A stretch of DNA of 64,000 bases from an uncultured Ignavibacterium sp. (GCA_937125135.1 CAKZLD010000146.1:1799-65798); one strand, 5' to 3'; shown: positions 7,052 through 62,574, counted from the stretch's first letter. The notes: generated from the letters alone by a model not told the origin. Numbers and translations: made by a program.

Positions 7052-7055
7052 TTAT

Positions 7056-7523
7056 ATGAAAAGCGTTAGTAATTCACAGATAGAAATGACAGAATTGGTG
7101 CTGCCAAATCACACTAATCAGCTTGGAAATTTACTTGGTGGTCAGTTAATGCATTGGATTGATATCTGTGCAGCTTTGAGTGCAGCAAAGCACGCAAATA
7201 AAATTTGTGTTACTGCTTCTGTGGATAGAATTGATTTTCACCATCCGATTAAATTGGGTGATGCGGTTACTTTAATAGCATCGGTTAATAGAGTATTTAA
7301 TACTTCTATGGAAGTTGGTGTGAAAGTGTATGCTCAGAATTTTCGACTTGGAACTAGAATTCATACAAATACAGCTTATCTTACATTCGTAGCTGTTGAC
7401 GAGAATGAAAAACCAGTTCCAGTTGACCAGATTATTCCGGAAACAGAGGATGAAATCAGACGATTTGAAGATGCACTCAGGAGAAGAGAAGATAGACTTA
7501 AAAACAGATCTAAAACTATTTAG
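7056..7523 (+). CDS. Acyl-CoA thioesterase (hotdog fold, YciA-like)
   Basis: MTELVLPNHTNQLGNLLGGQLMHWIDICAALSA and SVDRIDFHHPIKLGD are typical of the acyl-CoA hydrolase hotdog family. Confidence 0.8.
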   Translation: MKSVSNSQIEMTELVLPNHTNQLGNLLGGQLMHWIDICAALSAAKHANKICVTASVDRIDFHHPIKLGDAVTLIASVNRVFNTSMEVGVKVYAQNFRLGTRIHTNTAYLTFVAVDENEKPVPVDQIIPETEDEIRRFEDALRRREDRLKNRSKTI

Positions 7524-9594
7524 TTTTTTAATTATCCTCATTTTTTCTTCCAGTTTATTATTTGCTCAAATTCCTATTAATGGTTTTACGAACTTTTCTG
7601 AAATTGAAACTATTCCTGATCAAAACAAAATTTTTAGTTTAAATTTTAATAAAGATCCCTATTCTGATATTCTGATTTATAATCAGGAAAACAAGGTGGG
7701 TTATTTATTAACAGGACAACCAAACCTTAAATTTTCAAAACCTCAAAAATTATTTTTCCAATTTGAACCAAATTTCTTCAAACCAATTTACAACTCTCAA
7801 AATCAAATTATAGAATACGCTTTTACATCAAGAAAGTCTCGAATTTTTGGATTACTTAATTTTAATCAATATGGTTATCCAAGAATTTCGAAAAGTATTA
7901 AGTTGAGTTCTTTCCCAAACAGAATTGATGTCGAAGATGTTGACTTAAATAACTCAAATGATTATTTAATCTCAGGCGAAGCATTCGAAGGATTGTCAAT
8001 TATATTTGAAAAAAATAATAAATTAGAAGAGAAGAAACTCTTCAAAGGTCATTCATTCCTTGATGCATTTTTCTTCAATATCAATGGTGATGAATATATT
8101 GATATCTTAGCCTTCGATCTGATAACTCAAAAACTTTTTTTTATCTATAATAAAGATGGAGAGAGATTTGAAAAGGAGAGAGAGCTGAGCATAAATCAGT
8201 CTGTTAATAAGTTTCAGATTATTGACCTCAATTTTGATGGATATAAAGATTTGATTTTTTCCACTAACACTGGACTACAGATTTACTTTGGTGATAATCT
8301 AAGCACATTTAATCAGACAGTAAAAATTAGAACCTCATCCTCAATAAAAAATTTTACTGTTGGTGATTATAACCACGATGGTAGTTTTGATTTTATATGT
8401 CATTCAACTTCAGGCAATTACTTGTCAGTAATATTTGCAAAAGATGTAGATGAATTTTATGAGGAAATTATTTTTGATTTTGGAAATCAAATTGATGAAA
8501 TAATCCCTTTCTTTTCCAGATTTGTTTATGGAGTAACCAATCTTTCAAAAGATGGTAAAATCAAGATTGTATATGAATTCACTTCGTTTAAGGAGGATGT
8601 TAATCTTATTTTCGGAATAAAACCAGTTGAAATTCATGCATTTGATTTGAATAATAACAGTCTCTCTGACTTTATTTTTATAGATAGATTTGATAACAGA
8701 CTGAAAATTATTCTAAAGAATAACAGAGGAATTCCTTCACAATATTTTCACATGAACTTGAATGGTATTCATTCAGAGATATTAATTTCAAAAGTATCTG
8801 ATTCGCAAGTGATTTTTTATCTCTACTCTCTGAATGAACGTTTAATAGAAATAATAGAATTTGATTTTAATGACTTTACTTTCAAAAAGAATTATCTCTA
8901 TGCAGAAGGGAAGATTCAGGATTTGTGGAGTACAAATTTTAATGGCTCTGAGGAAATTAAAATTTTATATTCGAATAGAAATCAACTCAATTACGGTGTT
9001 TTAAGACTTTCACTTGATAAAAAGTATAAATTGGTTAAGTATCCGCTCGTTGCTGATAATTTTATTATTGCAAACATCACAGCTGAGAATGAAAATAAAA
9101 TAATTTATTGGAATAAAAACGATACTGTTGCTCACCTCAATTTATCAAACTATTTTTTTGACAGCAAACAGGAGAAAAAACTATTTTCAATCAATTATTC
9201 AGGAGAAATCAATTTCTTTAACAGCATTCCAAAACAGGTAAAAAATCATGACTACTTCTCATCGCTTATTCAAATGCCTGATAAGAAATATTTGCTTATT
9301 TTTAATCGTGATTTAAATATTTTAATTAATACTGATTTGCTGACAAATCACTCTTTGGAATCAAAAAAACCTTTAGTTCATGACAATGAAGGATTTCTTT
9401 ATTTTTTTGACTCAAAGTCTAAACAAGTTTTCAGAATCATTTACGTAAAGAGATTGAATAAAGTTATTATAAGATCAGTATTTGAAAATGTTAATGTGGA
9501 AGAATTCTCAATTTCCAAACTTGATAAAACCAATAAGCATTTAATTTTTATTGATTCTGAAGATAAAAAAATTAAAGTAAGGCAATTGAATTGA
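7471..9594 (+). CDS. Secreted FG-GAP/VCBS-like repeat protein
   Basis: Signal peptide KLFSFLIILIFSSSLLFAQ. Ca-loop-like repeats recur: NINGDEYIDILAF, DLNFDGYKDLIFS, GDYNHDGSFDFICHS, DLNNNSLSDFIFID. The start is uncertain: the track start 7396 lies deep inside the thioesterase gene, and I chose the last in-frame ATG (7471) before the signal peptide. Confidence 0.5.
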   Translation: MHSGEEKIDLKTDLKLFSFLIILIFSSSLLFAQIPINGFTNFSEIETIPDQNKIFSLNFNKDPYSDILIYNQENKVGYLLTGQPNLKFSKPQKLFFQFEPNFFKPIYNSQNQIIEYAFTSRKSRIFGLLNFNQYGYPRISKSIKLSSFPNRIDVEDVDLNNSNDYLISGEAFEGLSIIFEKNNKLEEKKLFKGHSFLDAFFFNINGDEYIDILAFDLITQKLFFIYNKDGERFEKERELSINQSVNKFQIIDLNFDGYKDLIFSTNTGLQIYFGDNLSTFNQTVKIRTSSSIKNFTVGDYNHDGSFDFICHSTSGNYLSVIFAKDVDEFYEEIIFDFGNQIDEIIPFFSRFVYGVTNLSKDGKIKIVYEFTSFKEDVNLIFGIKPVEIHAFDLNNNSLSDFIFIDRFDNRLKIILKNNRGIPSQYFHMNLNGIHSEILISKVSDSQVIFYLYSLNERLIEIIEFDFNDFTFKKNYLYAEGKIQDLWSTNFNGSEEIKILYSNRNQLNYGVLRLSLDKKYKLVKYPLVADNFIIANITAENENKIIYWNKNDTVAHLNLSNYFFDSKQEKKLFSINYSGEINFFNSIPKQVKNHDYFSSLIQMPDKKYLLIFNRDLNILINTDLLTNHSLESKKPLVHDNEGFLYFFDSKSKQVFRIIYVKRLNKVIIRSVFENVNVEEFSISKLDKTNKHLIFIDSEDKKIKVRQLN

Positions 9595-11264
9595 TTAACA
9601 AATTAATATTATTGATTTTTTTTATATCTGTTTCAAAAATAATTGGACAGGAAATTTCGCAGAGTAAATTGGATTCGATTTACAATTTGTATGTTCTAAT
9701 AAGGACTGGTGAGCAAATTGGAGAAAAACCGATCAGTATTTCTCACGATCAACGAAAATGCGGTTTCGAGGTTGCCGCAAGTGTAGTTTCTAATTTTAAT
9801 AGATTTTCCAAATTGCAACAATCGGTACTAACTTCTCTTTTTCAGAGACCAGTTCTTGATACGAGTATTGTAACCCCTTCAGGATTTTTCAGAATTCATT
9901 ATAATAAATCAGGCTCTTCAGCTCCGAGTTATTCCCTTCAAGAATTAGCTAAAGCACTTGATTCTGTTTATAATTTTGAAGTCCGATATCTCGGCTATCC
10001 GCCCCCTCCGCCTGATAATGGGATCGGTGGAGATAATAAATTTGATATATACATTACTAATCTTGGTGCGGATTATTATGGATTCACGCAACCAGAAACT
10101 CATCTTGGGAATGAACGTTATACAAGTTTTACAGTAATAGATAATGATTATTTGGGATATCCAACTACCGGAATAAATGGTGCAAAAGTTACTGTTGCAC
10201 ACGAGTTTCATCACGCTATTCAAATTGGAAATTACATTTACAGAGAGTCAGATATATTCTATTACGAAATAACTTCCACTGCTATGGAAGAATTTGTGTT
10301 TGATGATATAAACGACTACTATTTTTATTTATCCGATTACTTTAATAATCCATCGAGACCTTTTTTGCTAAATAATGGATACAATCTTTCTATATGGAAT
10401 TTATTTCTCCAAAAAAATTTCGATCATCAACTTTTAAAAAGAATCTGGGAACTGATGCCTAATAACAGAGCTTTAACATCCATTGCTTTGGCTATAAATG
10501 AAAGAGGTTCAACATTTAAAGAACAATTAAGCAAATTTGGAATTTGGAATTATTACACCGGCTACAGAAATTTCCCCGGCAGATACTACGAAGAGGCACA
10601 AAATTATCCGATGATAAAAACTACAGATCCGATGCCTTTCTCACCACCATCGCGTTCTTATACAATGAGAAGTCGGGCAACTACAAATTACTATTTAAAA
10701 ATAAATTCAGGTTTAGATTCATTGGTTGTGATATTATCTAATTCCGACATCGTTAGTGGAATTGACAGCACTGAAAAAACTTTTCCTTTTGTTTACACAC
10801 TTTATAATGATACTTCGAAGGGCTCAAGGAAACTTGCGGGCATTTTTTCTGCAGATTTTGAAACTTTAAATCCTCTCCATCAATCGTTTTATAGCGTTTC
10901 TGAAATTCTCAATGATATAGTTGTTAATGGGGACACAAGCTTTTCCCCACAAAAGAGTGATAAAGAGATATTTCCTTTTCCCAATCCATATCGTTTTAAT
11001 GAAAATTATATTCTTGGAAAAATTTTGAATATTCAAGTGAATAAAAGTTTTCATGATGAAGTTGATTTTTATGTTTATTCTTCTTCTATGAATCTGATTT
11101 ATAACAATTTTCACAAATTGGTCTTCCTCCCAAATGGTACAAAAGGAATTAAGTGGGATTTAAGAGATAATAACGGGAACTATGTTCCCTCCGGAGTTTA
11201 CTTCATATCAATAAAAGTTGGAGTTAATGTTTTCAAAGACAAAGTTGTGATTTTCAATGAGTAA
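9591..11264 (+). CDS. Secreted putative zinc metalloprotease (HExxH) with T9SS C-terminal sorting domain
   Basis: Signal peptide MINKLILLIFFISVSKIIGQ. HExxH occurs in VTVAHEFHHAIQIGNY. The tail, FPFPNPYRF...DFYVYSSSMNLIY...GVYFISIKVG...VVIFNE, resembles the Por secretion tail. The TTG start overlaps the upstream TGA. Confidence 0.6.
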   Translation: MINKLILLIFFISVSKIIGQEISQSKLDSIYNLYVLIRTGEQIGEKPISISHDQRKCGFEVAASVVSNFNRFSKLQQSVLTSLFQRPVLDTSIVTPSGFFRIHYNKSGSSAPSYSLQELAKALDSVYNFEVRYLGYPPPPPDNGIGGDNKFDIYITNLGADYYGFTQPETHLGNERYTSFTVIDNDYLGYPTTGINGAKVTVAHEFHHAIQIGNYIYRESDIFYYEITSTAMEEFVFDDINDYYFYLSDYFNNPSRPFLLNNGYNLSIWNLFLQKNFDHQLLKRIWELMPNNRALTSIALAINERGSTFKEQLSKFGIWNYYTGYRNFPGRYYEEAQNYPMIKTTDPMPFSPPSRSYTMRSRATTNYYLKINSGLDSLVVILSNSDIVSGIDSTEKTFPFVYTLYNDTSKGSRKLAGIFSADFETLNPLHQSFYSVSEILNDIVVNGDTSFSPQKSDKEIFPFPNPYRFNENYILGKILNIQVNKSFHDEVDFYVYSSSMNLIYNNFHKLVFLPNGTKGIKWDLRDNNGNYVPSGVYFISIKVGVNVFKDKVVIFNE

Positions 11265-31326: not shown

Positions 31327-31408
31327 AAATTTTTGTGTATTTAAAAATGATTTGACTTTTAATTAAAAATTACTACTTTCAGAAAAAAAATAAAAATTAC
31401 CAAAAAAC

Positions 31409-31437
31409 TTGACTTAAATATATTTGGTTTATATTTT
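31409..31437 (+). promoter_or_regulatory. Putative sigma70-type promoter for the BNR/T9SS gene
   Basis: TTGACT (31409-31414), a 17-nt spacer, then TATTTT (31432-31437), within a 200-nt AT-rich intergenic region. An AAGGAG RBS lies just before ATG 31527. Confidence 0.3.
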
Positions 31438-31526
31438 TCAAGGTAAATTGAAAAGATTTTAATTAAAAGAATATTTTTATTAACTAATTAACCAAAACAT
31501 ATCATTCACAAAAAAAGGAGATCAAA

Positions 31527-33320
31527 ATGACTAGAAACATTCTTACAGTTATTCTAGTTACTCTTTTCATTGCTTCTTTAGCAATTGCTCAAAACAGCTC
31601 TGTTAAGGTTCACTACAAACAATTGGCTGACGACAATGCCAATGTTCCTGTAGTCGAAAAACAAATTACCCCTCCGACAATTCTTTCTGGTGAAAACGTA
31701 ATTACAACTAATTACGATTACTTCTCAAATTCCGTTATTAGAGATCAGATTGTTTTTGATGTAACAAATCAAAAACCACACTTGTTTAATATGATACGTC
31801 CGTGGCAAGGTGCTGCGACTCGACATGCAGCCCACATAAGAAGAGAGGGCACGAATTGGATTGCTCAATCAGTTAGCAATGGTGCAGGTGGTTGGCCACA
31901 TATAGATTTAGGACTAACTGGTGATGGTACCGGAACAATTGCATTAGTTTGGCACACCCCAAGCCGTCTATCTATTTGGGATGGAGGTACAGGATATCTA
32001 TCAGCTCAGTTTGATCCTTCAACTGACCCATCTGTTCAGATTAGTGGTAGCAGAATGTTTTTGGCTACTTCTGGTGGTAGAGTTCAGTATAAATTTTACA
32101 GGACTACTGATTTTGGCGTTACGTTTACTAATTGGGATAGTATTAAAACATTTATTCCATCCTGGACCAACAATGGTGGTGTTGAAGTTGGTATGAGCAA
32201 ATCTATGAATGAACAACATTTAGTTATGTTTGGAAATGCAGAGGGAACCCCTACTGGTGGTTCTGCTCACGTTTATAGTGGCGCAGTTCCAGATCAAGCA
32301 GATTGTTTCTGGGTAATGAGATCTACGAATGCAGGAACAAGTTGGACTGCTTCAAAAATTGCAATTGATGGCGAATTCGATAAAGTAGTCGGATATCATA
32401 CTCCTAATTTTGCTCCTATTATCGAAAACTTTGCTCAAACTGATATAGCTGTTGCAAATAATGGTGTTTTTCACGCAGTGGCAAATGGATATGGGTTAGT
32501 ATTTAATAATACAAGAGATACTGCTATTGGTTCTCATTTCCCATTATTATATTACAATTCACAATCGAACACATGGAGAGCTATCTCATCCAGAGCAATT
32601 GATACAATCAGAGCAATTGTAAACTACTATCCTACAAATGCAATTGGTCAGTCATATCCATCAGTTGCAACTAGTGATGATGGTTCAGTAGTATTTGTAA
32701 TTTGGACTGGTCCTCAGTTAAATGCTGCAGGTGGTTTAGACACAGCTTCAAATGGTGCTGCTACTCCTGTTATGTATTATTGGAGAGACTTATATCATGC
32801 ATATTCAACTAATGGCGGAAATACGTGGGTTTATGGTGGTAAATTCCCCGGAATGAGTAATACTGTCTCTGAAACTTATGGTACTGTAGCTCAACATTTA
32901 GAAAAAGTAAATGCAACTAAATATCGTGCACATATCGTTTACTTAGCTGACTTAACAACTGGTGTCGGTCCTTTTGATAACGTATTGACCGATAATCCAA
33001 TTGTTTATACTACTTTTGATATTGACGTTGTTTCAGCAGATAATACACCAGTAGTAAACAGTTTTGAACTTGGTCAGAATTATCCTAATCCTTTCAACCC
33101 AAGCACAAAAATTACATACTCTGTTGCTGAGAGAACAAATGTCTCTATCAAAGTATTTGATATGCTTGGAAAAGAAGTTGCTACATTAGTTAACGAAGTA
33201 AAAGATGCTGGTTCTTATGATGTTAATTTCGATGCATCGAATTTAGCTTCCGGAATGTATGTTTATACCATTACTGCCGGAAACTTTACAGCATCGAAGA
33301 AAATGATGTTAATGAAGTAA
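31527..33320 (+). CDS. Secreted BNR/Asp-box repeat protein with T9SS C-terminal sorting domain
   Basis: Signal peptide ILVTLFIASLAIAQ. Asp-box-like motifs are RSTNAGTSWT, YSTNGGNTWV and TTDFGVTFTNW. The CTD reads LGQNYPNPFNPSTKITYSV...VSIKVFDMLGKEV...GMYVYTITAGNFTASKKMMLMK. Confidence 0.65.
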   Translation: MTRNILTVILVTLFIASLAIAQNSSVKVHYKQLADDNANVPVVEKQITPPTILSGENVITTNYDYFSNSVIRDQIVFDVTNQKPHLFNMIRPWQGAATRHAAHIRREGTNWIAQSVSNGAGGWPHIDLGLTGDGTGTIALVWHTPSRLSIWDGGTGYLSAQFDPSTDPSVQISGSRMFLATSGGRVQYKFYRTTDFGVTFTNWDSIKTFIPSWTNNGGVEVGMSKSMNEQHLVMFGNAEGTPTGGSAHVYSGAVPDQADCFWVMRSTNAGTSWTASKIAIDGEFDKVVGYHTPNFAPIIENFAQTDIAVANNGVFHAVANGYGLVFNNTRDTAIGSHFPLLYYNSQSNTWRAISSRAIDTIRAIVNYYPTNAIGQSYPSVATSDDGSVVFVIWTGPQLNAAGGLDTASNGAATPVMYYWRDLYHAYSTNGGNTWVYGGKFPGMSNTVSETYGTVAQHLEKVNATKYRAHIVYLADLTTGVGPFDNVLTDNPIVYTTFDIDVVSADNTPVVNSFELGQNYPNPFNPSTKITYSVAERTNVSIKVFDMLGKEVATLVNEVKDAGSYDVNFDASNLASGMYVYTITAGNFTASKKMMLMK

Positions 33321-33367
33321 TTCTGAAATAAGTGAGAAATTTATTAAATAGGTTCTTTTAATTTTCG

Positions 33368-33420
33368 AAGCGGATGGAAAGGATTCCGGCAACTGAATTC
33401 AACCATCCGCTTTTTGTTTC
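33368..33420 (+). terminator. Rho-independent terminator after the BNR/T9SS gene
   Basis: The outer stem aagcggatgg/ccatccgctt and an inner stem ggattc/gaattc form a long interrupted hairpin. It is followed by tttttgttt. Confidence 0.7.
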
Positions 33421-33468
33421 TTAGAAATTTTAGTAAACTTTTATTAAACAATATATGGTGGAGATGAG

Positions 33469-36297
33469 ATGAAACGAATTTATACCGTTTTATTCGGTTT
33501 ACTCCTTATTACCTCAATTAATTTTGCTCAAACGGGTGTGGGCAAAATTAGCGGTAAGATTATTGATGCAGCCACAAAAGAACCTCTTGTTGGGGCTAAT
33601 ATCGTAATTCTTAACACCGATTGGGGTGCTGCCTCTAATGTCGAAGGCGAATACTTTATTTTGAACGTTCCACCCGGCACATACGACCTCCGGTTTAGTT
33701 ATGTTGGTTACGCTCCTAAAACAGTTCAGAATGTAAGAGTTGTTGGTGGTGTAACTTACGAGCTAAATGTTGATTTGAGCACCGATTTTACACTTCCTGA
33801 AATCGTTGTTCAAGATAAAAAGTTCTTCGAAGAAAAAGCAACAAATACTAAAAAAGTCATTGATTCTGAAGAAATAGCAAGGCTTCCTGTCAAAGGAGTT
33901 GAAAGAATTGCATCCTTGCAGGCAGGTGTAGTTATGCAGGAAGGTAGCGGAGGTTCAGAAGGTAATGCAACTATAAATGTTCGTGGCGGTAGAGGTGGTG
34001 AAGTTCTTTACATTGTTGATGGTGTTCCTCAAAATGACGTTTTTTTCGGTAATAATACTTCTCAGGTAAGTAATGCGGCTATTGAGCAAATCGCTTTTGA
34101 AATAGGTGGTTACGAGGCTAAATACGGTCAGGCACAATCTGGAATTATCAATGTTACTACTAAAACAGGTGCACCCACTTATTCAGTTTTTGCTGATGTG
34201 TTGACATCTTCTTTTACTGATAATTATGGATATAATCTTTATACCGGATCTATAAGTGGTCCTATTATACCAGGTTATCCTAAACAAACATTCTTTGTTT
34301 CTGTAGAAAGAGGTTGGTTCAAAGATGCTGATCCTAAAGCTGTAAATTATAGCTTCCCATCAATTGGTAAGTCTTATGACTTTATTCCTGAAAATGATGC
34401 TGGTGTTTACAGAATAACTGGTAGAACAAACTTCAGTATTGAAAATTGGTCTTTGAGATTAGGGACAAATATAAATACTAGGAATTCAAGAGGAGTTATA
34501 GGTACATATATTAAGAATAATCCTGAACACAATACTCGGAACGAATCCGGTAATTATTCATATACAATGAGACTTTCAAATAATCTTTCTAGTTCATCTT
34601 TCTGGAATTTTAATGCAGGATATAAATTATATACCAATGAGTCAGGAGATGGAATATGGTTTAGAAATCTTGAAGCATATGGTGATAGTATTTCAAATGC
34701 TAAAATTGGTGTGACTCTTCCTGGCAATGGTCAAAGATTACTTCAGGATTCGATTGGAATCTTTTGGCGTAAAGGAAGGGTTGTTAATTCTTACTCAAAA
34801 TACAAATCCGAAACTTTCAATTTTGATGTTGATTTTACTGCTCAAATTTCTAACCATCTTTTGGAAGTTGGTGGAGGCTTGAATACGCACACATTAAGAT
34901 ATTTTGCTATTGCTCCGGTAGGACTTTCAGCCAACAATATCAGAAATCTTCCTGCTAAAGAAAAATATTCAAGATTACAGCCCACAGTGTTTGGATATGA
35001 CATAACTGGTAAAACAGAAACCAATGCTGATAATGCTGATGATACAGAATTTGCACCTAAAAAACCATTATTAGCTTATGCTTACATTCAGGATAGATTC
35101 GAATTGGAAGATATAGTTCTTAATCTTGGATTAAGGATGGATTATTTTGATACTAAGACAGATATTTTGAAAAATCCTAAATTACCATATGCTGCAGGTG
35201 ACCCGAGTAAATTTGATGCTGCAGATTTTATAGTTAAGAAACCAGAATTAAAAATTTCCCCCAGAATTGGTTTGGGATTCCCTGTTACAGCTACTACAGT
35301 TTTCCATGCTCAGTATGGGAAATTCATTCAGCAACCAAGTTTAAATCAATTATACTCCAGTAAAATTGATTATAACGATATTATAAGAGATGCTTCTTTT
35401 ACTTTCTTAAATGGATATGTAAATAGTGAAGAAACTACTCAATATGAAGTTGGATTCCGACAAATATTGGGTGATGTAGCAGCCTTAAACATCACTGCTT
35501 TCTATAAAAATACTAGGGGACTAATAAATCAGCAATTGATATTTTTCCAAAGAATAGAGGGTGGTGAAGTATTAGAATATTACTCTCCGACAAACACTGA
35601 CTTTGGCACAATCAAAGGATTAGCTTTCTCATTGGATGTTGCTAGAATCAGCTATTTCTCAATGGCATTGAATTATACATATTCAATTGCTGAAGGAACT
35701 GGCTCATCAACTTCTTCTAACTTTATAGCTGCATTCAGAAATACTGGTCCTGATAGAATTCCAAAAGTTATTGCTCCTTTGGATTTTGATCAAAGGCATA
35801 CGGGAACAATTAATTTAGACATCAGTGTTCCAAAAAATGACCTTGGTTTATTAGAAATGACAAATGCAAATATCCTGGTTTCTTTCAACAGTGGTAGACC
35901 ATACACTCCGCTTCAAGAACAAAATCTTCTTGAAGGCTCCTCAAACTGGGGTGAAACAAAAGGTTATGTTAACTCAGCTTATGGACCAGGTAATTTTAGA
36001 GTGGACTTAAAGATTGAAAAAGGTATTCCTTTAGGTAATCTGGTAATTACTCCATATGTCTTAATTGAGAACTTATTTGATGCTGATAATCCGGTTGAAG
36101 TTTATCGTTCAACAGGTAGTCCATATACAACGGGATGGTTAAATACATCTCAGGCTAGGAGGATTAAAGAGGATCAACGTTATCCACAACTGTTTGAATA
36201 TGATTATAAATCCCTTGAATTAAATCCTTTTAATTTTGGTATTCCAAGATTAATCAAATTGGGTTTAAAAGTTAATTTCTCAAATATTTCCTTTTAA
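33469..36297 (+). CDS. TonB-dependent-receptor-like outer membrane barrel with N-terminal carboxypeptidase-regulatory-like domain
   Basis: Signal peptide, then GKISGKIIDAATKEPLVGANIVILN...GTYDLRFSYVGYAPK (CarboxypepD_reg-like). A plug-like segment follows (INVRGGRGGEVLYIVDGVPQND). The long beta-rich body ends in an aromatic residue (KVNFSNISF). Confidence 0.75.
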   Translation: MKRIYTVLFGLLLITSINFAQTGVGKISGKIIDAATKEPLVGANIVILNTDWGAASNVEGEYFILNVPPGTYDLRFSYVGYAPKTVQNVRVVGGVTYELNVDLSTDFTLPEIVVQDKKFFEEKATNTKKVIDSEEIARLPVKGVERIASLQAGVVMQEGSGGSEGNATINVRGGRGGEVLYIVDGVPQNDVFFGNNTSQVSNAAIEQIAFEIGGYEAKYGQAQSGIINVTTKTGAPTYSVFADVLTSSFTDNYGYNLYTGSISGPIIPGYPKQTFFVSVERGWFKDADPKAVNYSFPSIGKSYDFIPENDAGVYRITGRTNFSIENWSLRLGTNINTRNSRGVIGTYIKNNPEHNTRNESGNYSYTMRLSNNLSSSSFWNFNAGYKLYTNESGDGIWFRNLEAYGDSISNAKIGVTLPGNGQRLLQDSIGIFWRKGRVVNSYSKYKSETFNFDVDFTAQISNHLLEVGGGLNTHTLRYFAIAPVGLSANNIRNLPAKEKYSRLQPTVFGYDITGKTETNADNADDTEFAPKKPLLAYAYIQDRFELEDIVLNLGLRMDYFDTKTDILKNPKLPYAAGDPSKFDAADFIVKKPELKISPRIGLGFPVTATTVFHAQYGKFIQQPSLNQLYSSKIDYNDIIRDASFTFLNGYVNSEETTQYEVGFRQILGDVAALNITAFYKNTRGLINQQLIFFQRIEGGEVLEYYSPTNTDFGTIKGLAFSLDVARISYFSMALNYTYSIAEGTGSSTSSNFIAAFRNTGPDRIPKVIAPLDFDQRHTGTINLDISVPKNDLGLLEMTNANILVSFNSGRPYTPLQEQNLLEGSSNWGETKGYVNSAYGPGNFRVDLKIEKGIPLGNLVITPYVLIENLFDADNPVEVYRSTGSPYTTGWLNTSQARRIKEDQRYPQLFEYDYKSLELNPFNFGIPRLIKLGLKVNFSNISF

Positions 36298-36323
36298 TAG
36301 TTTGGATTAAACACGAGGAAAAA

Positions 36324-39300
36324 ATGAAAAAAAATATGAAAAATAGAACTTACATAATTACTCTGTTTTTGATTGCCGTTGTTTCTTTGGCTTTCAGAAG
36401 CGGAGAAGGTGGAAAAAACACGACCTACAAAGGAAATGTCCCTGCAAGAGATTCTTACAGATTATTTATAAATAATCTTAACATCCCATTAAACAGAATT
36501 GGAGTGCTTGGTGATGTTAGTATTGGAGGAAGTTCTGGCGGAAGATTAGATGGAAAAGAATTTCTTTATTCCGGCGGTTTTTTCCTAAGTGGCAAGACAA
36601 GAGGTATTCCTTGGGCAAATGGAGTTGCATCTGCTTCAAGGATAACAGATTATGAGCCAGGCACTTATAAATTTGGCACTAATGATCCAAGAAATCAGAT
36701 TTACGTTCTTGAACAAATGAAAGGTGATTTTAATGAACAGTGGGAATTTTGGAAATCGGCTGTTGATTTAGGAGCGTATTTTTATGATGGTGATGGTGAC
36801 GGGAAATACAACCCAGTTGATCTCAACGGAAATGGAAAATGGGATCCTACTGAAGATCGACCAGATTTGATAGGTGATGCTACTGTTTGGTGTGTTTATA
36901 AAGATTCAAGATCACCCGCTTTAAGAAGATTTAATGATGTTGACCCACAAGGTATAGAAATTCGACAAAGTGTATTTGCGTTTGCTTCAAAAGGTGTTGT
37001 CGGAAATATGATATTTATCAGATACAGTATCTTAAATACTGGTAGTGTTGCCGATACCCTTGATGATGTATATTTTGGAACTTGGGCTGATCCTGATTTA
37101 GGTAACATAAATGATGCTTATCTTGATGATCTTGTAGGATGCGATACTACTCTAAATGCAGGTTACGTTTATAATGATGGCGATGATAATGAATGGGGAC
37201 AAACTCCCCCTTGTTTCTTAATTGATTTTTTCCAGGGTCCAATAGCATATATACCAGGTGAAACTTTTGTTGATAATAATGGAAATGGTATTTTTGATGC
37301 AGGTGACACTCCACTTGATACTGCTTACAATGTTCAAGGGCAGGTTAGAGGAATAGCAAAATTCCCTGGCGCAAAGAATGAAGGACTTTCTTCTTTTGTT
37401 CATTACATGCAAAGCCATCCAACTCACGGTGACCCAAGTACTCAGTTTGAAGCTAGAAATTATATGTTAGGAAAGAACAGAGTAGGGGCTGCTCTTGATC
37501 CTTGTAGTTGGACTTTTGGTACTGTAAGAGGTGGTATTAACTGTGCTCTTGTTGATCCACGTTATTCATACAGTGGAGATCCTGTAACAGACGTTGGTTG
37601 GATAAATATTGCACCAACAGATCAGAGACAAATGTCTAATACTGGTCCCTTTAAACTAGTTAAAGATAAACCCGTTGATATTGTTGTAGCTTATGTCGTA
37701 GGTAGAGGAACAAACGCACTAAATAGTATTACAGTAGCAAAACAATATGATATAGTTGCGCAATTAGTATTTGATAATAACTTCCCTTCACCACCTGCCC
37801 CACCTCAGGTGAAGTATAATGTAAAGAATGGAATTGACTTTATAGATTTAGAGTTCAAAACTGCTGAACAGATAAATTATGTTGCACGCGATACAGTTTT
37901 GGATATTGAAAGAAGACTTCAAGGTTTTTATGTTACAGCATTTAGAACAAGATCGAAAGAACCAAGTATTCAGGGAATCCAAAATAGTGCTGTTATTGCA
38001 GAATATCAGGTAGATAACTTTATTAAGAATGTTTATCAGATATCTGGCAATGGTGGCAGGAATCTTGTTATCAAGGAAGTTGATTCTACTAATAAATTAA
38101 ACCCTGTTATTTACGGCAACCCAAATACTGGTAGAATTCGTGTTAGAATTAATAAAAATCCTTTCGATGGAGCACCACTTATTAAAGGTCAAGAATATTA
38201 TTTCACAATTACTCATTACTACTTAAATCATAAAGCGATTGTACATAATTCGGGCGCTCCTTTCGGAACATCTGGTGATTACTATGATCCAGGAGGAGGA
38301 GCAATTGAAGAGTTTGAAACTCAAAGAATTGATGTCGTTTTTGGTGAAGACCAATACGCACCTGCTTACTACGGAATTGAACCAGAAAAAACGGGTGCTT
38401 CCAGCGGTGCTGTTAAACCTTTAATTGTTAATAATGATGAATTGACCGGTGACCAGTACACAGTTGAATTCTTTGAGGATAAAAATCAAGCTCCGGCAAC
38501 TCTTTATGCTCCTTTCTGGAGATTAAAGAATAACCGAACAAATGCTGTTTTAATTGATTCATCAAAAGTGTATGACTTTGATACTAGTAAATATGCTGGA
38601 ACTGTTACCGAAGGTTTTATAATAAAAGTTAAACCTGTTGAAACAAGAATAGGTTCTGGATCTCAAATTACCTATACTCCATCAGCAAACAGATGGTACA
38701 CTACTTTTAGATCTGATTCAGGCACTGGTATCTTTTATGTTGGTCAGGATATACCACAAAGTAGTAAGATCCAAATTAACCAAACTTCGAATATAGCTTC
38801 TAATTACACTCGTGCAAATAAATTAAGAACAATTGAGTTACGTTTTGGTACCAATGGCAAAGCTTACAGATATCTAAATGGTTTCAAAGGAGGTAATCCT
38901 ATTCAAAAAAGAGGCTCATTTGTATATGCTTCATATGTAACAGCTGCAGAAACCACTAACACCGGATTAAAGAGGTTTGGAGAAGGTTTTGTTGATGTAC
39001 CATTTACTGCTTGGGTTAAAGATGACAGATATAAAGAAGAGAAACAATTAGCAGTGGCGTTTGTAGAAATAGCTGGAAATATGGGTGGTACACCTGATGG
39101 TGTCTGGGATCCGGGGACAGTTACATCACCAATAGGTAATGAAATTATACTAATTCTTGATGCACCTTACGATCCAAACGGTGGAAATATAGTTTATACT
39201 GGTGGAGCATCAACTGTACCAGCTGATATAGTCAGAGGTTATGCAACTAATGATGCTTCTGCAACAGTTGAACAAAAAGCTATCGCACTTTCACCTTTGT

Positions 39301-39809
39301 TTAATACATTATATGCTGTAAGTTTAAAGAAACGAAGCGCTACAAGCTTTTTCACAAATGGTGATGTTCTGCGTGTTCCGATGATCACTTATCCTTACAC
39401 TTCAGGAGATAAGTTCACTTTCAAAACTACTAATAAAGGATTGCTAAGTGAAGATGATCAAAGAGCACTTTTTAATAAAGTTAATGTATTTCCAAATCCA
39501 TTATTTGGATTTAACCCTGCAACAAGCTTTGCAAATACACCACCGGATGAACCTTTTGTAACTTTCTCCAACTTACCTGAAGAAGTTACGATTAAAATAT
39601 TCACTCTGTCTGGTACTAGGGTTAGAACATTAACGACTTCGGATAAATCTTCACCTAAGTCAACATTTTTAAGATGGAATTTGAAGAACGAAGATGGATT
39701 AAGAGTAGCTTCCGGTTTATATATAGCTATAGTAGAATCGCCCAAATTTGGTGAAAAGATTCTGAAATTCTCGATAATTATGCCTCAAAAACAAATAGAA
39801 AGATACTAA
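36324..39809 (+). CDS. Large (1161 aa) secreted protein with Ca-binding-like loops and T9SS C-terminal sorting domain
   Basis: Signal peptide YIITLFLIAVVSLAF. D-x-D-x-D-G-type loops include YFYDGDGDGKYNPVDLNGNGKWDPTEDRPD and VDNNGNGIFDAGDTPLD. The CTD-like tail reads VNVFPNPLFGFNP...VTIKIFTLSGTRVRTL...GLYIAIVESPKFGEKILKFSIIM. No catalytic motif is recognised. Confidence 0.6.
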   Translation: MKKNMKNRTYIITLFLIAVVSLAFRSGEGGKNTTYKGNVPARDSYRLFINNLNIPLNRIGVLGDVSIGGSSGGRLDGKEFLYSGGFFLSGKTRGIPWANGVASASRITDYEPGTYKFGTNDPRNQIYVLEQMKGDFNEQWEFWKSAVDLGAYFYDGDGDGKYNPVDLNGNGKWDPTEDRPDLIGDATVWCVYKDSRSPALRRFNDVDPQGIEIRQSVFAFASKGVVGNMIFIRYSILNTGSVADTLDDVYFGTWADPDLGNINDAYLDDLVGCDTTLNAGYVYNDGDDNEWGQTPPCFLIDFFQGPIAYIPGETFVDNNGNGIFDAGDTPLDTAYNVQGQVRGIAKFPGAKNEGLSSFVHYMQSHPTHGDPSTQFEARNYMLGKNRVGAALDPCSWTFGTVRGGINCALVDPRYSYSGDPVTDVGWINIAPTDQRQMSNTGPFKLVKDKPVDIVVAYVVGRGTNALNSITVAKQYDIVAQLVFDNNFPSPPAPPQVKYNVKNGIDFIDLEFKTAEQINYVARDTVLDIERRLQGFYVTAFRTRSKEPSIQGIQNSAVIAEYQVDNFIKNVYQISGNGGRNLVIKEVDSTNKLNPVIYGNPNTGRIRVRINKNPFDGAPLIKGQEYYFTITHYYLNHKAIVHNSGAPFGTSGDYYDPGGGAIEEFETQRIDVVFGEDQYAPAYYGIEPEKTGASSGAVKPLIVNNDELTGDQYTVEFFEDKNQAPATLYAPFWRLKNNRTNAVLIDSSKVYDFDTSKYAGTVTEGFIIKVKPVETRIGSGSQITYTPSANRWYTTFRSDSGTGIFYVGQDIPQSSKIQINQTSNIASNYTRANKLRTIELRFGTNGKAYRYLNGFKGGNPIQKRGSFVYASYVTAAETTNTGLKRFGEGFVDVPFTAWVKDDRYKEEKQLAVAFVEIAGNMGGTPDGVWDPGTVTSPIGNEIILILDAPYDPNGGNIVYTGGASTVPADIVRGYATNDASATVEQKAIALSPLFNTLYAVSLKKRSATSFFTNGDVLRVPMITYPYTSGDKFTFKTTNKGLLSEDDQRALFNKVNVFPNPLFGFNPATSFANTPPDEPFVTFSNLPEEVTIKIFTLSGTRVRTLTTSDKSSPKSTFLRWNLKNEDGLRVASGLYIAIVESPKFGEKILKFSIIMPQKQIERY

Positions 39810-39820
39810 GTTGAAAACTT

Positions 39821-39845
39821 GCAGCGGTCAGTTAAAGACCGCTGC
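39821..39845 (+). terminator. Strong hairpin between the T9SS cargo gene and the PorV-like gene (partial terminator or processing site)
   Basis: gcagcggtc-agttaaa-gaccgctgc is a 9-bp GC-rich stem. The downstream cttaaaatttt is only an imperfect U-tract. Confidence 0.45.
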
Positions 39846-39882
39846 CTTAAAATTTTGAAAATACTTGAGGAGAAAATAGAAA

Positions 39883-40902
39883 ATGAAAAAATTGTTAGTT
39901 TTATTAGTACTATCTGCTTGCATAGCAGTAAACTTTGCAGGCGATAAATCCAGAAAGGGAACCACTGGAGCTGATCAATTACTGATTCCAGTTGGGGCTC
40001 GTGGCATTGCAATGGGAGAATCATTTTTATCAAGTGTAACAGGGTTAGAAGCTATTTATTACAACCCTGCTGGCTTTGCTCATCAACAGGGCAGTGAAGC
40101 AATGTTTAGTTATATGAGCTACTTCGCTGATATTAATGTATCCTATTTTGCTGTTGGAACTAACCTTGGTGATTTAGGTTCATTTGCATTCAGTATAAAG
40201 TCTTTTGATTTCGGCAACATTCCCGTAACAACATTTGAAGCACCGGATGGAACTGGCGATATATATTCACCAAGCTTTTTAACAGCAGGAATAACTTATT
40301 CCAAAGTTATTACCGATAGAGTAAGTATTGGTGCTAATGCCAAAGTTATTAGCGAATCAATTATGGATGTTAGTGCAGTAGGTTTTGCTATTGATTTTGG
40401 TGTTCAATATAAATTCTCTGGCAATTTGAGCTTAGGTGCTGCAGTAAAAAACATTGGAACTAATATGCAATATGGTGGTCCTGAATTACAGCAGAGAGCA
40501 CCGATTCCAAATACTCTCCCCGGTTCACGTTCAGGAATGTACCAAATAGTTACTGAAACTTTCCAGATTCCAAGTTATTTTGAATTAGCCCTTGGTTATA
40601 AATTTGATTTGAATGAGCAAAATATGCTTCAGGTGGCTTCGACCTTCAGAAATAATAATGCTCTGGAAGATCAATTAAAACTAGGACTTGAATATGGTTT
40701 TAGTAATATGTTCTTCCTAAGAGGAGGATATGATTTGTTACTTGAAAACACAAATCAAAATACATTTGGTTTAACAGCTGGTGCTGGAGTAAATTATCAA
40801 ATGGCTGATGGAATCAATCTTACTCTTGATTATGCTTTCAGAGAAGTTAAAGAATTCCCAACAGCAAATCATATTATCACACTTAAACTTGGCATTGAAT
40901 AA
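39883..40902 (+). CDS. PorV/PorQ-family outer membrane beta-barrel protein
   Basis: Signal peptide, then TTGADQLLIPVGARGIAMGESFLS...AIYYNPAGFA, which matches my memory of the N-terminal signature of the PorV/PorQ family. Alternating beta-strand pattern throughout. Length 339 aa. Confidence 0.6.
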   Translation: MKKLLVLLVLSACIAVNFAGDKSRKGTTGADQLLIPVGARGIAMGESFLSSVTGLEAIYYNPAGFAHQQGSEAMFSYMSYFADINVSYFAVGTNLGDLGSFAFSIKSFDFGNIPVTTFEAPDGTGDIYSPSFLTAGITYSKVITDRVSIGANAKVISESIMDVSAVGFAIDFGVQYKFSGNLSLGAAVKNIGTNMQYGGPELQQRAPIPNTLPGSRSGMYQIVTETFQIPSYFELALGYKFDLNEQNMLQVASTFRNNNALEDQLKLGLEYGFSNMFFLRGGYDLLLENTNQNTFGLTAGAGVNYQMADGINLTLDYAFREVKEFPTANHIITLKLGIE

Positions 40903-40925
40903 TTTCTGATAAAGTGTATTTTTTA

Positions 40926-40962
40926 GGCGTTCAATTGAAAAAGTTGAACGCCTTATTTTTTT
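40926..40962 (+). terminator. Rho-independent terminator after the PorV-like gene
   Basis: ggcgttcaa-(9-nt loop)-ttgaacgcc followed by ttatttttttt. Confidence 0.75.
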
Positions 40963-40983: not shown

Positions 40984-42354
40984 ATGAAAAATATTTATCT
41001 AATATTTTTTCTTTTTATTACAAGATTTATTTCTTCTCAGGATATCGGTTTTGATTTTGATTATGCTCAGTTCGGCTACGATTCTTCATCAAACTTTGTT
41101 GAGTTTTATTACGTATTTGAGCAATCAAAACTGCTTCCGGTCAAGAAAGAAGAAAAGTCTTTCGTCGAAGCTTTCTTAAAAATTACAATTTTAGATTCAG
41201 CCAGCAATGATACAATAGTTAACAACAAATGGGTTGTTCAACACGAACTTAATATTCATTCAGAAGGTTCTCAAAGTTTAGTTGGAGTTATCAGTTTTAT
41301 TATTCCTGAAGGTGTTTATAAATGCTCTCTCGAAGGAAGTGACTTCAACTCTCCATTAAACAGAAAAACTATTGACGAATTTTTAAGAGTTAAACCTTTT
41401 AGAAAAGAAGATTTATCTATCAGTGATATTCAAATTGCTTCTAAAATGATTCAGGGAAGCGAAAATGTCAATTCAATTTTTTATAAAAATAGTTTCGAAA
41501 TCATTCCAATTCCAAATCTTGTCTTCGGTGAAAATCAACCAGTGTTGTTTTTTTATGCTGAAATATATAATCTCAAAGACAAATCATATTTGACTGAGAA
41601 CTTCAAACTGAATGAGATAATTTTGAACAGTCGTGGAAAGATAGTTTCCAGAAAAGATAAAATACTTTCCAGAAAAACAGATACTCGCGTTGAAGTTGGT
41701 TCATTCGTTTTAGCTAAGCTTCCAACAGATACTTATACTCTGATAGTTTCTATTATTGACACGATAAATAATACCGGAGTTAGTTCTACAAAAAAATTTT
41801 TCGTTTATAATCCAAACATCGTTGATACAGATACTTCATTTAAAACATTAAAACCAGTTTTAAGTTCAATTTTCGGAGCGATGAGCGAAGAAGAGCTTGA
41901 TGATATTTTTACAAAATCAAAATATATTGCCTCTTCTGCTGAAATTGATAAATTTAATAAACTGAAAGGAGAAGAAAGCAAAAAAGAGTTTTTATTTGAT
42001 TTCTGGAATGCCCGCGATAATTCACCTTCAACTCCCGAGAATGAATATTTCTATGAATATTTGAAAAGAATTGAATTGTCAAATCAGCGATATAATTCTA
42101 TGCAAAAACAAGGCTGGAAAACTGATCGAGGAAGAATTTATATTATTTACGGAGAGCCTTCAGAAATTGAGAGATACCCAAATCAAATTGAAAGCCGACC
42201 TTATGAAATATGGCATTATAATGAAATTGAGGGAGGAGTATTTTTTATCTTCGCTGATTTAACAGGTTTTTCAGAATATACTTTAGTTCATTCCACTAAA
42301 CGTGGTGAGCTTAGAGATGATAATTGGGAAAGGAGAATTATAATAGCAAAATAA
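40984..42354 (+). CDS. GWxTD domain-containing secreted protein
   Basis: Signal peptide IYLIFFLFITRFISSQ. The C-terminal region contains QKQGWKTDRGRIYIIYGEPSEIE...YEIWHY, the GWxTD signature. I prefer ATG 40984 to the track TTG at 40975. Confidence 0.7.
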   Translation: MKNIYLIFFLFITRFISSQDIGFDFDYAQFGYDSSSNFVEFYYVFEQSKLLPVKKEEKSFVEAFLKITILDSASNDTIVNNKWVVQHELNIHSEGSQSLVGVISFIIPEGVYKCSLEGSDFNSPLNRKTIDEFLRVKPFRKEDLSISDIQIASKMIQGSENVNSIFYKNSFEIIPIPNLVFGENQPVLFFYAEIYNLKDKSYLTENFKLNEIILNSRGKIVSRKDKILSRKTDTRVEVGSFVLAKLPTDTYTLIVSIIDTINNTGVSSTKKFFVYNPNIVDTDTSFKTLKPVLSSIFGAMSEEELDDIFTKSKYIASSAEIDKFNKLKGEESKKEFLFDFWNARDNSPSTPENEYFYEYLKRIELSNQRYNSMQKQGWKTDRGRIYIIYGEPSEIERYPNQIESRPYEIWHYNEIEGGVFFIFADLTGFSEYTLVHSTKRGELRDDNWERRIIIAK

Positions 42355-61128: not shown

Positions 61129-62574
61129 ATGAAAAAAAATCTTAATGACTATCCCCTCGTTCTAACGGCTACAGTTTTCTTATTTGTAGCAATTCTTTCG
61201 TTTTTCCAATTCCAATACGATTTATTCGGTTTTACTTTAAAGAATGTTGATATTTTCTCAGATTTGAAGTCTAAACCAGAAGAACAACCAAAGAACCCAG
61301 AAAAGCCAGTAGAGGAAGATGATTTCTTTAAACCGCAATATGATTTGGAGCCAAACAACGATAATTTAGATACTACAAAAGACAAAAATAAAATTCACGA
61401 AAAAATTAGATCTTCAATTTTTAATCTTTTGCTCTCAGTCAATCCTAATGATACAATTTTTGTAAAAGGTTCGAAATTAGTTTTAAAAAATCAACCGATT
61501 ATAGGAAATGTTCAGCAATTAAAATTTTTCTTCGACGGATTGAATAAAACCAAATCTGAAGTAGTTCGAATTGCACATTTCGGCGATTCAATGATTGAAG
61601 GCGATCTTGTTACTGCGGATTTGAGAGAAGAATTACAAAAACGTTTTGGGGGAAATGGAGTTGGGCTTTTACCTATAGTTAGTCAGGATATAAATTTTCG
61701 TCAAACCACAAAAATGTCTTTTTCGAATGATTGGAAATCTGGAACATTGTATTCAGGAAATCCAAATAGATATCCTATAGGATTTAATGGAGAAACATTC
61801 GTCCCTGTTGCAGGAAGTTGGGTTGAATATTCAACTCCTCATTTTTATCCTTATTTAAGAAATTTCAGCACTGTAAAACTTCTTTATACAAATGCAAAAG
61901 CATCAAACGTTAATTTTACCTTTAGTGGAGGCGAAAAGAAAAGTGTAAAAATTATTCCCGGTCGAACGCTTAATATACTTAATGTTACTCCATCCAAACC
62001 TGCAACAAGTGTTAAAGTTGAATTTCCGCTTGAAGACCAAGCACACGTTTTTGGTGTAAGTCTGGAGAATGGAAATGGCTTATACATAGACAACTTCGCA
62101 TTAAGAGGAAATTCAGGAGTTGATTTAATAAAAATTGATGAAAATCTTATGAAAGAATTTGCGAGTAAGATGAATTATAAACTGATAATCTTTGAATTTG
62201 GTTTGAATGCTCTTGGTGCTTCAAAAGGCAATTTCAGTTCTTATGAAAAAAATATGATTAATGTAATCGAAACAATTAAGAAAAATTTTCCTAACACTTC
62301 CTTTCTAATGATAAGCGTTCAGGATAAGGGATTAAAAACTGATCCATTAGTTAAACAATTACTTGAAGCTCAGAAGAATATTGTTAAAGCTACCAATATT
62401 GCATTTTGGAATTTCTATGAAGTAATGGGCGGAGAAAATTCAATGGCAAATTGGGTCGATGCTAATCCTCCTCTTGCATCGAAAGATTATACTCATTTTA
62501 ATGAACGCGGTACTAAGAAGTTAGCTACAATGCTTGCTGAATCTTTAATTCAGGCATACAACAAGCTAAGATAA
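61129..62574 (+). CDS. Membrane-anchored SGNH-type hydrolase/acyltransferase with N-terminal extension
   Basis: TM helix LVLTATVFLFVAILSFF, a Pro/Glu-rich linker, then RIAHFGDSMIEGD (block I) and DYTHFNERG (DxxH). Confidence 0.6.
   Translation: MKKNLNDYPLVLTATVFLFVAILSFFQFQYDLFGFTLKNVDIFSDLKSKPEEQPKNPEKPVEEDDFFKPQYDLEPNNDNLDTTKDKNKIHEKIRSSIFNLLLSVNPNDTIFVKGSKLVLKNQPIIGNVQQLKFFFDGLNKTKSEVVRIAHFGDSMIEGDLVTADLREELQKRFGGNGVGLLPIVSQDINFRQTTKMSFSNDWKSGTLYSGNPNRYPIGFNGETFVPVAGSWVEYSTPHFYPYLRNFSTVKLLYTNAKASNVNFTFSGGEKKSVKIIPGRTLNILNVTPSKPATSVKVEFPLEDQAHVFGVSLENGNGLYIDNFALRGNSGVDLIKIDENLMKEFASKMNYKLIIFEFGLNALGASKGNFSSYEKNMINVIETIKKNFPNTSFLMISVQDKGLKTDPLVKQLLEAQKNIVKATNIAFWNFYEVMGGENSMANWVDANPPLASKDYTHFNERGTKKLATMLAESLIQAYNKLR

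Follow-up and report, generated by a model that had tools for sequence, protein, structure and literature searches.

In Porphyromonas gingivalis, PorQ and PorZ form a stable pair in which the C-terminal sorting domain (CTD) of PorZ stays uncleaved, and which assembles independently of PorU and PorV (PMC10947112). Type-B cargos of type IX secretion systems (T9SS) are taken from the translocon by a dedicated carrier barrel that then anchors them at the surface (PMC10994853), and in the SprB-SprF and PG1035-PorP pairs the carrier gene adjoins the cargo gene (PMC10994853; PMC9143113). In Myxococcus xanthus, the TonB-dependent transporter Oar is needed for the secretion of PopC (PMC6434023). Here we describe a locus that shares traits with each of these systems. 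It lies in a stretch of 64,000 nucleotides (nt) from an uncultured Ignavibacterium sp. (GCA_937125135.1 CAKZLD010000146.1:1799-65798; "the window" hereafter means this whole stretch), and it consists of three co-directional genes on the + strand. These encode a 942-amino-acid (aa) outer-membrane barrel of the TonB-dependent-transporter type (33469-36297), an 1161-aa secreted all-β protein that we call the cargo (36324-39809), and a 339-aa outer-membrane barrel of the PorV/PorQ (hereafter PorV/Q) family (39883-40902). We lean, while giving it somewhat less than an even chance, toward reading this trio as one outer-membrane capture-and-import device, made of a T9SS cargo, its dedicated PorQ-like anchor and a TonB-dependent transporter.

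The cargo and the small barrel recall PorQ-PorZ most directly. In both cases a T9SS substrate with an atypical CTD is accompanied by a 14-strand barrel of the PorV/PorQ family that holds it, or here would hold it, at the surface, and PorQ is the best equivalog match of our barrel. The resemblance to PorZ is limited to the CTD: PorZ is built of two β-propellers, whereas the cargo has a supersandwich head on a β stalk. The window genes also differ from porQ and porZ in being adjacent, duplicated together, present in several copies per genome and always associated with a TonB-dependent transporter; the barrel falls far under the PorQ cut-off, and the trio shows no sign of a role in sortase attachment. 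An original prediction, made from the sequence alone, had compared the barrel with SprF, the partner of SprB. The logic of a dedicated carrier is indeed the same, but the barrel is of the PorV/PorQ family and the CTD is related to type A and not to type B. Unlike in the SprF/PorP systems, the barrel gene sits after the cargo gene and the unit includes a transporter gene. With PorV, the general carrier of type-A cargos (6H3I), the barrel shares its family and its N-terminal signature; it differs in its low score against the PorV model, in being always tied to one cargo family and in having several paralogs per genome.

The locus had also been called Sus-like. As in SusC/SusD and RagA/RagB, a TonB-dependent transporter gene is followed by the gene for a large surface-exposed partner. 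At its N-terminus the transporter is laid out like SusC, with a plug preceded by a CarboxypepD_reg-like extension and a TonB box; RagA is the nearest sequence with a solved structure, and the cargo carries a putative glycan-type binding head. However, the transporter fails the SusC/RagA model, the partner is all-β and has no lipobox, its anchoring is predicted to go through the T9SS and a dedicated barrel and not through a lipid, and the third gene is obligatory. What stands is thus a conserved unit with a T9SS-type partner after the barrel; the transporter is not a SusC, the partner is unlike SusD, and a Sus-like uptake function is suggested by gene linkage. Oar shares with our transporter its TonB-dependent barrel type, its CarboxypepD_reg N-terminus and its link to a secreted protein; here, in contrast, the cargo has its own T9SS signal and carrier, and the window transporter has no Oar-family match. 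The trio therefore combines known kinds, a T9SS cargo-carrier pair and a transporter with a surface partner, and opens no new category; the function given to it is a predicted one. Automatic annotations call its members "TonB-dependent receptor", "T9SS type A sorting domain-containing protein" or "hypothetical", and "PorV/PorQ family protein". Literature searches on the T9SS of Ignavibacteria and Melioribacter, on PorV/PorQ-like barrels and on TonB returned no paper on the trio or on the cargo family.

Anatomy of the three-gene unit

The spacers within the trio measure 26 nt (genes 1 and 2) and 73 nt (genes 2 and 3), and calling of the open reading frames (ORFs) reproduced exactly the predicted coordinates, sizes, common direction and spacers. 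The clean terminator proposed at 40926-40962 was recovered at 40925-40962 (+ strand), as a 12-bp stem (5 of its pairs G-C) around a 5-nt loop, followed by a T run. On the other side, the 5' limit of the transcription unit is set by the intrinsic terminator of an upstream 597-aa gene (33367-33421, + strand; RNA fold -28.5 kcal/mol, z = -3.6), in which an 11-bp outer stem is followed by UUUUUGUUU. Because of its short spacers and of the terminators on either side, the trio looks like a single transcription unit.

After a Sec signal peptide and an N-terminal module, the cargo (36324-39809, + strand) continues with β domains that are uncatalogued (about 560 residues) and ends in a PorZ-like CTD. 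There is no cysteine in its first 40 residues and hence no lipobox, and it carries DGDGDG and NNGNG loops, so that the anticipated secreted protein with calcium-loop motifs and without lipobox was found. Its body matched no family in Pfam (including segments at E<=1), NCBIfam or PADLOC, and a sequence search of the Protein Data Bank (PDB) found no relative; the profile search that had been suggested thus pointed to no characterised enzyme family in Pfam, NCBIfam or the PDB. More than 1500 close homologs are all named "hypothetical" or "T9SS sorting domain". The full-length AlphaFold2 (AF2) model, with a mean predicted local distance difference test score (pLDDT) of 82.5, is almost wholly β. 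Foldseek searches with this model gave mostly noise from immunoglobulin and macroglobulin chains, at template-modelling (TM) scores of about 0.06; searches by domain were usable.

The N-terminal module, or head (residues 43-490; 36450-37793, + strand), is a β-supersandwich with inserted calcium-loop motifs, modelled at a pLDDT of 95 and a predicted TM score of 0.93 over residues 41-495. Its most conserved stretch is a calcium-loop insertion at about residues 153-191 (nt 36780-36896), which includes DGDGDGKYNPVDLNGNGKWDPTEDRPD. In Foldseek, the head distantly matches the non-catalytic N-terminal supersandwich domains of GH94, GH116 and GH65 enzymes, dextran dextrinase and cyclic glucan synthase, with a probability of 1.0 but low TM scores. 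An exhaustive HMMER search with the full-length cargo returned 4560 clusters, most of them over the head region only. Two shorter kinds of protein carry the head as well: some of about 570 aa that end in a canonical Por_Secre_tail, and others of about 1000 aa in which a BNR propeller precedes the head (for example at 2534-4276 in L083 and 8001-11072 in L084; L numbers designate the loci compared, and positions are counted within each). These shorter proteins have no transporter or PorV/Q neighbours, whereas the long form has both barrels. The head is therefore a widespread uncatalogued module deployed in two ways, and since it occurs without the barrels when it carries a canonical CTD, it is the stalk, the special CTD, the small barrel and the transporter that belong together. 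Two identities were considered for the cargo and rejected: a GH94, GH65 or GH116 enzyme, because no catalytic (α/α)6 domain follows the supersandwich and the remainder is β in the AF2 model; and a SusD/RagB protein, because there is no lipobox, no SusD-type Pfam match (segments, E<=1) and an almost entirely β model.

The CTD (residues 1051-1161; 39474-39806, + strand) has two family-specific insertions and a conserved tail with an aromatic end, IIMPQKQIERY. Against the type-A sorting-domain models TIGR04183 (cut-off 23 bits) and PF18962, it stays under the curated cut-offs, with 16 bits vs 23 and no Pfam match; the CTD of a paralogous cargo in L088 reaches 28.1 bits, over the cut-off of 23. 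Its homology with type-A domains is clear from an hhalign comparison of the family CTD with canonical type-A CTDs (95.6%, E 1e-8), from BLASTP against the CTD of the 597-aa neighbour (E 3e-6), and from a Foldseek match to the CTD of PorZ (5m11; probability 1.0, identity 27%), which is the sole specific match of the full-length model. The T9SS sorting domain read from the sequence is thus upheld by homology, though it lies under the model cut-offs. The NCBIfam PorZ model NF052228 gives 24.3 bits (cut-off 260), aligning residues 1048-1137 with model positions 668-740 only; it matches the CTDs of the trios at 24-37 bits and leaves the canonical CTDs of neighbouring genes unmatched. CHU_C, the type-B CTD, had no match in Pfam scans of the cargo. 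By these comparisons the CTD is homologous to type A but belongs to an atypical subtype, which is PorZ-like and has its own tail as well as insertions. That the cargo is PorZ itself was rejected, because the match covers the CTD part only and AF2 shows a supersandwich and β domains, not propellers.

The third gene (39883-40902, + strand) encodes a PorV/PorQ-family, FadL-like outer-membrane barrel, predicted to be the dedicated carrier and anchor of the cargo. Its score of 181.4 bits against NF033709 (cut-off 90; residues 27-335 on positions 1-323 of the 326 in the model) bears out the barrel type proposed at the start, and its only solved relative is PorV of F. johnsoniae (6h3i_F, E 7e-11). 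It falls under the cut-offs of the equivalog models for PorQ (NF033711, 94.2 vs 220 bits), PorV2 (NF052325, 82.7 vs 325) and PorV (NF033710, 75.2 vs 250), with PorQ the best of the three, a shortfall to which phylum-level divergence may add, as these models were built on Bacteroidota. The PorP/SprF model TIGR03519 gives 22.7 bits (cut-off 90.6). Within 1.53 Mb of loci, every PorV/Q-family gene with room upstream (88 of 88) directly follows a cargo-family gene, as expected of a cargo-linked barrel. Related genomes hold two to three PorV/Q-family genes, each behind its own cargo and transporter (L055/L088, L074 and L090). The barrel is thus, at least in related genomes, not a lone housekeeping PorV or PorQ, an identity that the original prediction had named as fatal to its proposal.

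The first gene (33469-36297, + strand) encodes a signal peptide, a CarboxypepD_reg-like extension (residues 27-114), a plug (residues 123-224) and a barrel whose last residue is Phe. In agreement with what had been read from the sequence, the Pfam matches to CarbopepD_reg_2 (66.9 bits) and Plug (44.3 bits, cut-off 23.9) are both over their cut-offs. A TonB-box-like motif, PEIVV, occupies residues 110-114 (nt 33796-33810); as (P/D)E(I/V)VV it is kept directly ahead of the plug in 68 orthologs, among which plug and motif are the best conserved parts of the transporter. The closest PDB sequence is RagA (E 2e-9), over the N-terminal 210 residues only. The barrel model PF00593 does not match the window protein; it matches an ortholog of the Ignavibacterium album type (I. 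album-like), as well as a paralog, at 102 bits. TIGR01786 matches the window protein weakly over residues 121-750, and the Oar-like barrel family PF25183 weakly matches the I. album-like ortholog and not the window protein. With its plug, its TonB box and, through relatives, its barrel, the protein has the make-up of a TonB-dependent transporter, and it is predicted to depend on TonB. Membership in the SusC/RagA family was rejected: TIGR04056 (cut-off 368 bits) has no match to the window transporter at E<=0.01, and the ortholog in L074 scores well below the cut-off, at 80.9 bits over the N-terminal 225 residues only.

Conservation and duplication of the trio

When 185,579 species, each represented by one genome, were scanned with the cargo, 307 relatives came up. 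The 80 best-scoring of these, whose loci were compared, all come from Ignavibacteria or Melioribacteraceae-type metagenome-assembled genomes (MAGs), of which a few carry another label. Wherever an Ignavibacteria locus has room (about 80 loci), the order is transporter, cargo, PorV/Q barrel. Conservation of the three-gene order had been proposed as a check across Ignavibacteria, Chlorobi and Bacteroidota; the order is kept across the first, and the trio was found only in Ignavibacteria-type genomes and not in the other two. Conservation across orthologs is highest for the PorV/Q barrel (0.60) and the transporter (0.57), followed by the cargo (about 0.48) and by a GWxTD-domain protein (0.44) whose gene usually comes after the trio, itself followed by an LpxL-like gene.

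The block also exists away from this neighbourhood. In a distant relative (L086), transporter (46% identity), cargo (33%), PorV/Q barrel (50%) and GWxTD protein (30%) stand together amid unrelated neighbours. Moreover, the PorV/Q paralog in L074 is 41% identical to the window barrel, and a search with it leads to a distinct lineage of barrels of about 348 aa. These belong to a second trio, made of a 991-1007-aa transporter, an 1165-1174-aa cargo and a 348-aa PorV/Q barrel. Its cargo is a full-length homolog of the window cargo (24% identity over about 1000 residues, E 2e-48) and has the same special CTD. The contexts of the second trio (L088, L089, L090/L091, L092 and L093) were picked through the PorV/Q barrel and not through the cargo, and so form an independent sample; four of the five show the same trio, and the remaining one, L089, is a contig of 2.5 kb that can hold only the cargo-PorV/Q pair. 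Both trios lie on one contig in L055/L088, and two cargo-barrel units stand in tandem in L090. The whole trio has thus been duplicated as a unit, and the relocation in L086 together with the diverged paralogous trio makes the conserved order more than inertia of synteny. The two classes of trio differ in the tail of their CTDs, which reads ...MPQKQIQR[FY] in the first and ...IIQEQEVP[DE]VF in the second.

Several observations accompany these loci. The second trio is always followed by a 746-841-aa signal-peptide protein with a PIG-L/LmbE-type deacetylase domain (L088, 10131-12446; L090, 10101-12617; L074, 2285-4810; L092, 11158-13500; L093, 12298-14538), and this would be in keeping with N-acetylated sugars being processed after import. 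Beyond the deacetylase come, in some loci, a GWxTD gene, then genes for an NHL-repeat protein and SSB. In L092, on a 1.9-Mb contig, the second-trio cargo (6506-9969) is broken up over three ORFs (808, 146 and 157 aa) and the transporter, at 841 aa, is short; these features could reflect assembly frameshifts or a decaying copy. In some genomes the PorV/Q gene is followed by one to three additional full-length cargo paralogs, which bring neither a further barrel nor a further transporter (L002, 14822-23510, with three extra copies; L023, 12846-16277; L026, 12764-16207; L038, 2334-7642). Within a genome these tandem paralogs are 60-74% identical, which suggests either that several cargos share one anchor or that the surface is being varied. 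In L085, a cargo-family gene is found two genes past a shorter, 784-aa barrel with CarboxypepD_reg and Plug domains and a rhodanese-domain protein.

In the window, the GWxTD-domain protein (40984-42354, + strand; TIGR04514, 113 bits) has a signal peptide and is probably transcribed separately. Its gene stands behind the PorV/Q gene in 67 of the 80 cases with room, moves with the trio in L086 (12709-14106) and accompanies the second trio in L090 (12640-14010) and L093 (14583-15950). The protein has no relative in the PDB, and we found no literature on the domain. It is probably a fourth, accessory component of the module.

Proposed mechanism and competing explanations

By homology with known T9SS substrates, the cargo would be exported through Sec and then carried across the outer membrane by the T9SS, steered by its CTD. 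The barrel encoded downstream, and not the general PorV shuttle, would then capture the PorZ-like CTD and remain bound to it as a permanent anchor, as PorQ does with PorZ and as SprF-type carriers do with type-B cargos. Once anchored, the cargo would present its calcium-loop supersandwich head on a long β stalk beside the transporter, a placement suggested by gene linkage only. The head would capture a ligand, most likely a fragment of a glycan or other polymer, and the transporter would import it using TonB energy. The barrel-anchored T9SS protein would in this way take over the role that a surface lipoprotein such as SusD or BtuG plays in Bacteroidota, with the secreted GWxTD protein as a likely accessory. 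We infer the physical association of cargo and barrel and the retention of the CTD from the linkage and joint duplication of the genes, the CTD tails peculiar to each class and the resemblance to PorZ/PorQ, and the ligand and its import from linkage, the conserved plug and TonB box, the weak carbohydrate-type fold and the deacetylase next to the second trio.

Several results weigh against this device. The head resembles solved folds only weakly (TM 0.34-0.38, identity 6-11%), and the resemblance names no ligand. The CTD is better conserved (0.65) than the other parts of the cargo (0.56 and 0.40), and we had to reject this as a sign of CTD retention, because the canonical 597-aa cargo behaves alike (0.66 vs 0.38). 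Nor do tandem paralogs that would share a barrel spare their CTDs (body 0.60-0.74, CTD 0.62-0.71), so that this argument was rejected as well. As a clue to the substrate, a riboswitch was sought before the transporter and none was found; Rfam has no match in the whole window. The window trio has no linked catabolic genes, glycoside hydrolases included, and its conserved neighbours are genes of lipopolysaccharide (LPS) and envelope synthesis (LpxL-like, GT9), which suit an envelope role equally well. Finally, no PorV/Q gene adjoins that of the most distant full-length cargo (L085, 3816-11273), which is 30% identical and has a CTD of the same type.

Some of these points would also fit a structural or adhesive surface layer, in which an abundant surface cargo, S-layer-like or an adhesin, is held by the small barrel and the TonB-type barrel serves as a second anchor or assembly partner and not to import nutrients. 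The cargo is large, all-β and calcium-loop-bearing and has no catalytic signature; the tandem arrays, with four copies in L002, resemble surface-protein variation, and the window trio has envelope-biogenesis neighbours and no linked catabolic genes. However, the conserved plug and TonB-box-like motif argue for a working TonB-gated channel, the nearest folds of the head are accessory domains of carbohydrate enzymes, and a periplasmic deacetylase is encoded next to the second trio. We consider a surface layer unlikely, while granting it some real weight.

It has less in its favour to regard cargo and barrel as the PorZ/PorQ equivalents of this lineage, that is, as housekeeping parts of T9SS attachment that deliver glycolipid to the sortase, with the transporter a mere neighbour. 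Several features fit: the CTD is PorZ-like, the barrel finds its best equivalog match in PorQ, an LPS sugar or another glycan could be bound by the supersandwich head, and the locus is a vertically inherited, single-copy-looking core locus adjoining lipid A and core-LPS genes (LpxL-like, GT9). Against them stand a body unrelated to the two propellers of PorZ, so that the PorZ model matches the CTD only, and a barrel far under the PorQ cut-off (94.2 of 220 bits). Two to three diverged copies per genome and tandem cargos are unexpected for a single part of a machine, and the transporter is duplicated with the pair and moves along with it in L086. These contrary points make such a housekeeping role improbable in our view.

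The adjacency of the three genes might also mean nothing, and merely reflect slow rearrangement of a conserved region. Synteny in Ignavibacteria covers everything between dnaE and the ATP synthase genes, so that gene order there is by itself weak evidence; yet the block recurs in another neighbourhood (L086), a diverged paralogous trio exists at another conserved locus, and in the window terminators bracket three genes spaced by 26 and 73 nt, all of which leaves meaningless adjacency very improbable. The weak match of the I. album-like ortholog to PF25183 allows one to imagine the TonB-type barrel as an Oar/PopC-like export channel for the cargo, with the PorV/Q barrel acting only afterwards, an idea to which we give hardly any credence, as the T9SS sorting domain and a carrier-family barrel already explain export, a folded 125-kDa β protein is unlikely to pass through a 22-strand barrel, and the window transporter does not match PF25183. 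The capture-and-import device remains our tentative preference.

Genomic setting and wider meaning

The window is a housekeeping stretch of low G+C (about 32%) from an Ignavibacterium-type chromosome, and its nearest relatives are Ignavibacterium sp. MAGs with protein identities of 85-93%. Its genes run from dnaE, a short-chain dehydrogenase/reductase gene and a thioredoxin gene, through the trio locus, to genes for an LpxL-like acyltransferase and a GT9 heptosyltransferase and on to the ATP synthase genes and ffh. The rest of the window is housekeeping and contains no further T9SS genes. The block had seemed G+C-richer than its flanks, with different codon choices. It is slightly richer, the trio genes having a G+C content of 0.35-0.36 vs a gene mean of 0.322 (sd 0.03), an excess of about one sd; codon choice, however, is the same, with a third-position G+C content (GC3) of 0.20-0.22 vs a window mean of 0.23. 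Because the excess is confined to codon positions 1 and 2 and GC3 is normal, it mirrors amino-acid composition. A horizontally acquired island was rejected on the same normal GC3 and on the synteny that about 80 Ignavibacteria genomes show for the locus and its flanks: the trio is a core locus of vertical descent, within a syntenic region that begins at dnaE and extends to the ATP synthase genes.

Upstream of the trio, the 597-aa protein (31527-33320, + strand) has a canonical type-A T9SS CTD (Por_Secre_tail, 48.5 bits), weak BNR/Asp-box signals and its own strong terminator. Orthologs with at least 80% coverage occupy this position in only 21 loci, and the gene was kept out of the core parts because it is separately terminated and variably conserved. 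That it might be a paralog of the head of the cargo was rejected, since only the CTD is in common. In I. album-like and other genomes, the thioredoxin gene is separated from that of the 597-aa protein by a serA-like gene for a 527-aa dehydrogenase (L001, 1413-2996; L002, 3406-4989), which is absent from the window (31327-31526) and from the closest MAGs (L004 and L005). Elsewhere, the window encodes a 732-aa FG-GAP-repeat protein (7396-9594) and two proteins with no Pfam match at E<=1e-6 (557 aa, 9591-11264; 481 aa, 61129-62574).

To our knowledge, the surface partners of TonB-dependent transporters in Bacteroidota are lipoproteins, and we know of dedicated T9SS carrier-anchors only for type-B cargos, with the SprF/PorP family, and for the single PorQ-PorZ pair. 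The trio suggests a third solution, in which a PorV/PorQ-family barrel is the private anchor of one large cargo and is welded to a transporter, with which it is duplicated. If this is true, the carrier-protein model of type IX secretion would be widened beyond Bacteroidota. Many unassigned "PorV/PorQ family protein" annotations would be explained, and thousands of "hypothetical" cargo-family proteins, together with the GWxTD domain, would receive a function. Genomes that hold two paralogous trios offer a clean case for comparing cognate with cross pairing. It is possible, though we regard this broader proposal as doubtful, that the Ignavibacteria build lipoprotein-free "utilisomes", in which a transporter is capped by a T9SS-delivered ligand binder, permanently anchored by a PorQ-like barrel, and whose parts co-evolve and duplicate as a unit. 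PorQ-PorZ would then be one instance of a general and older carrier-as-anchor mode of PorV/PorQ-family barrels. The Ignavibacteria lineage is common in sediments, bioreactors and hot springs, and in these bacteria type IX secretion would, on this broader proposal, be tied directly to TonB-dependent nutrient import.

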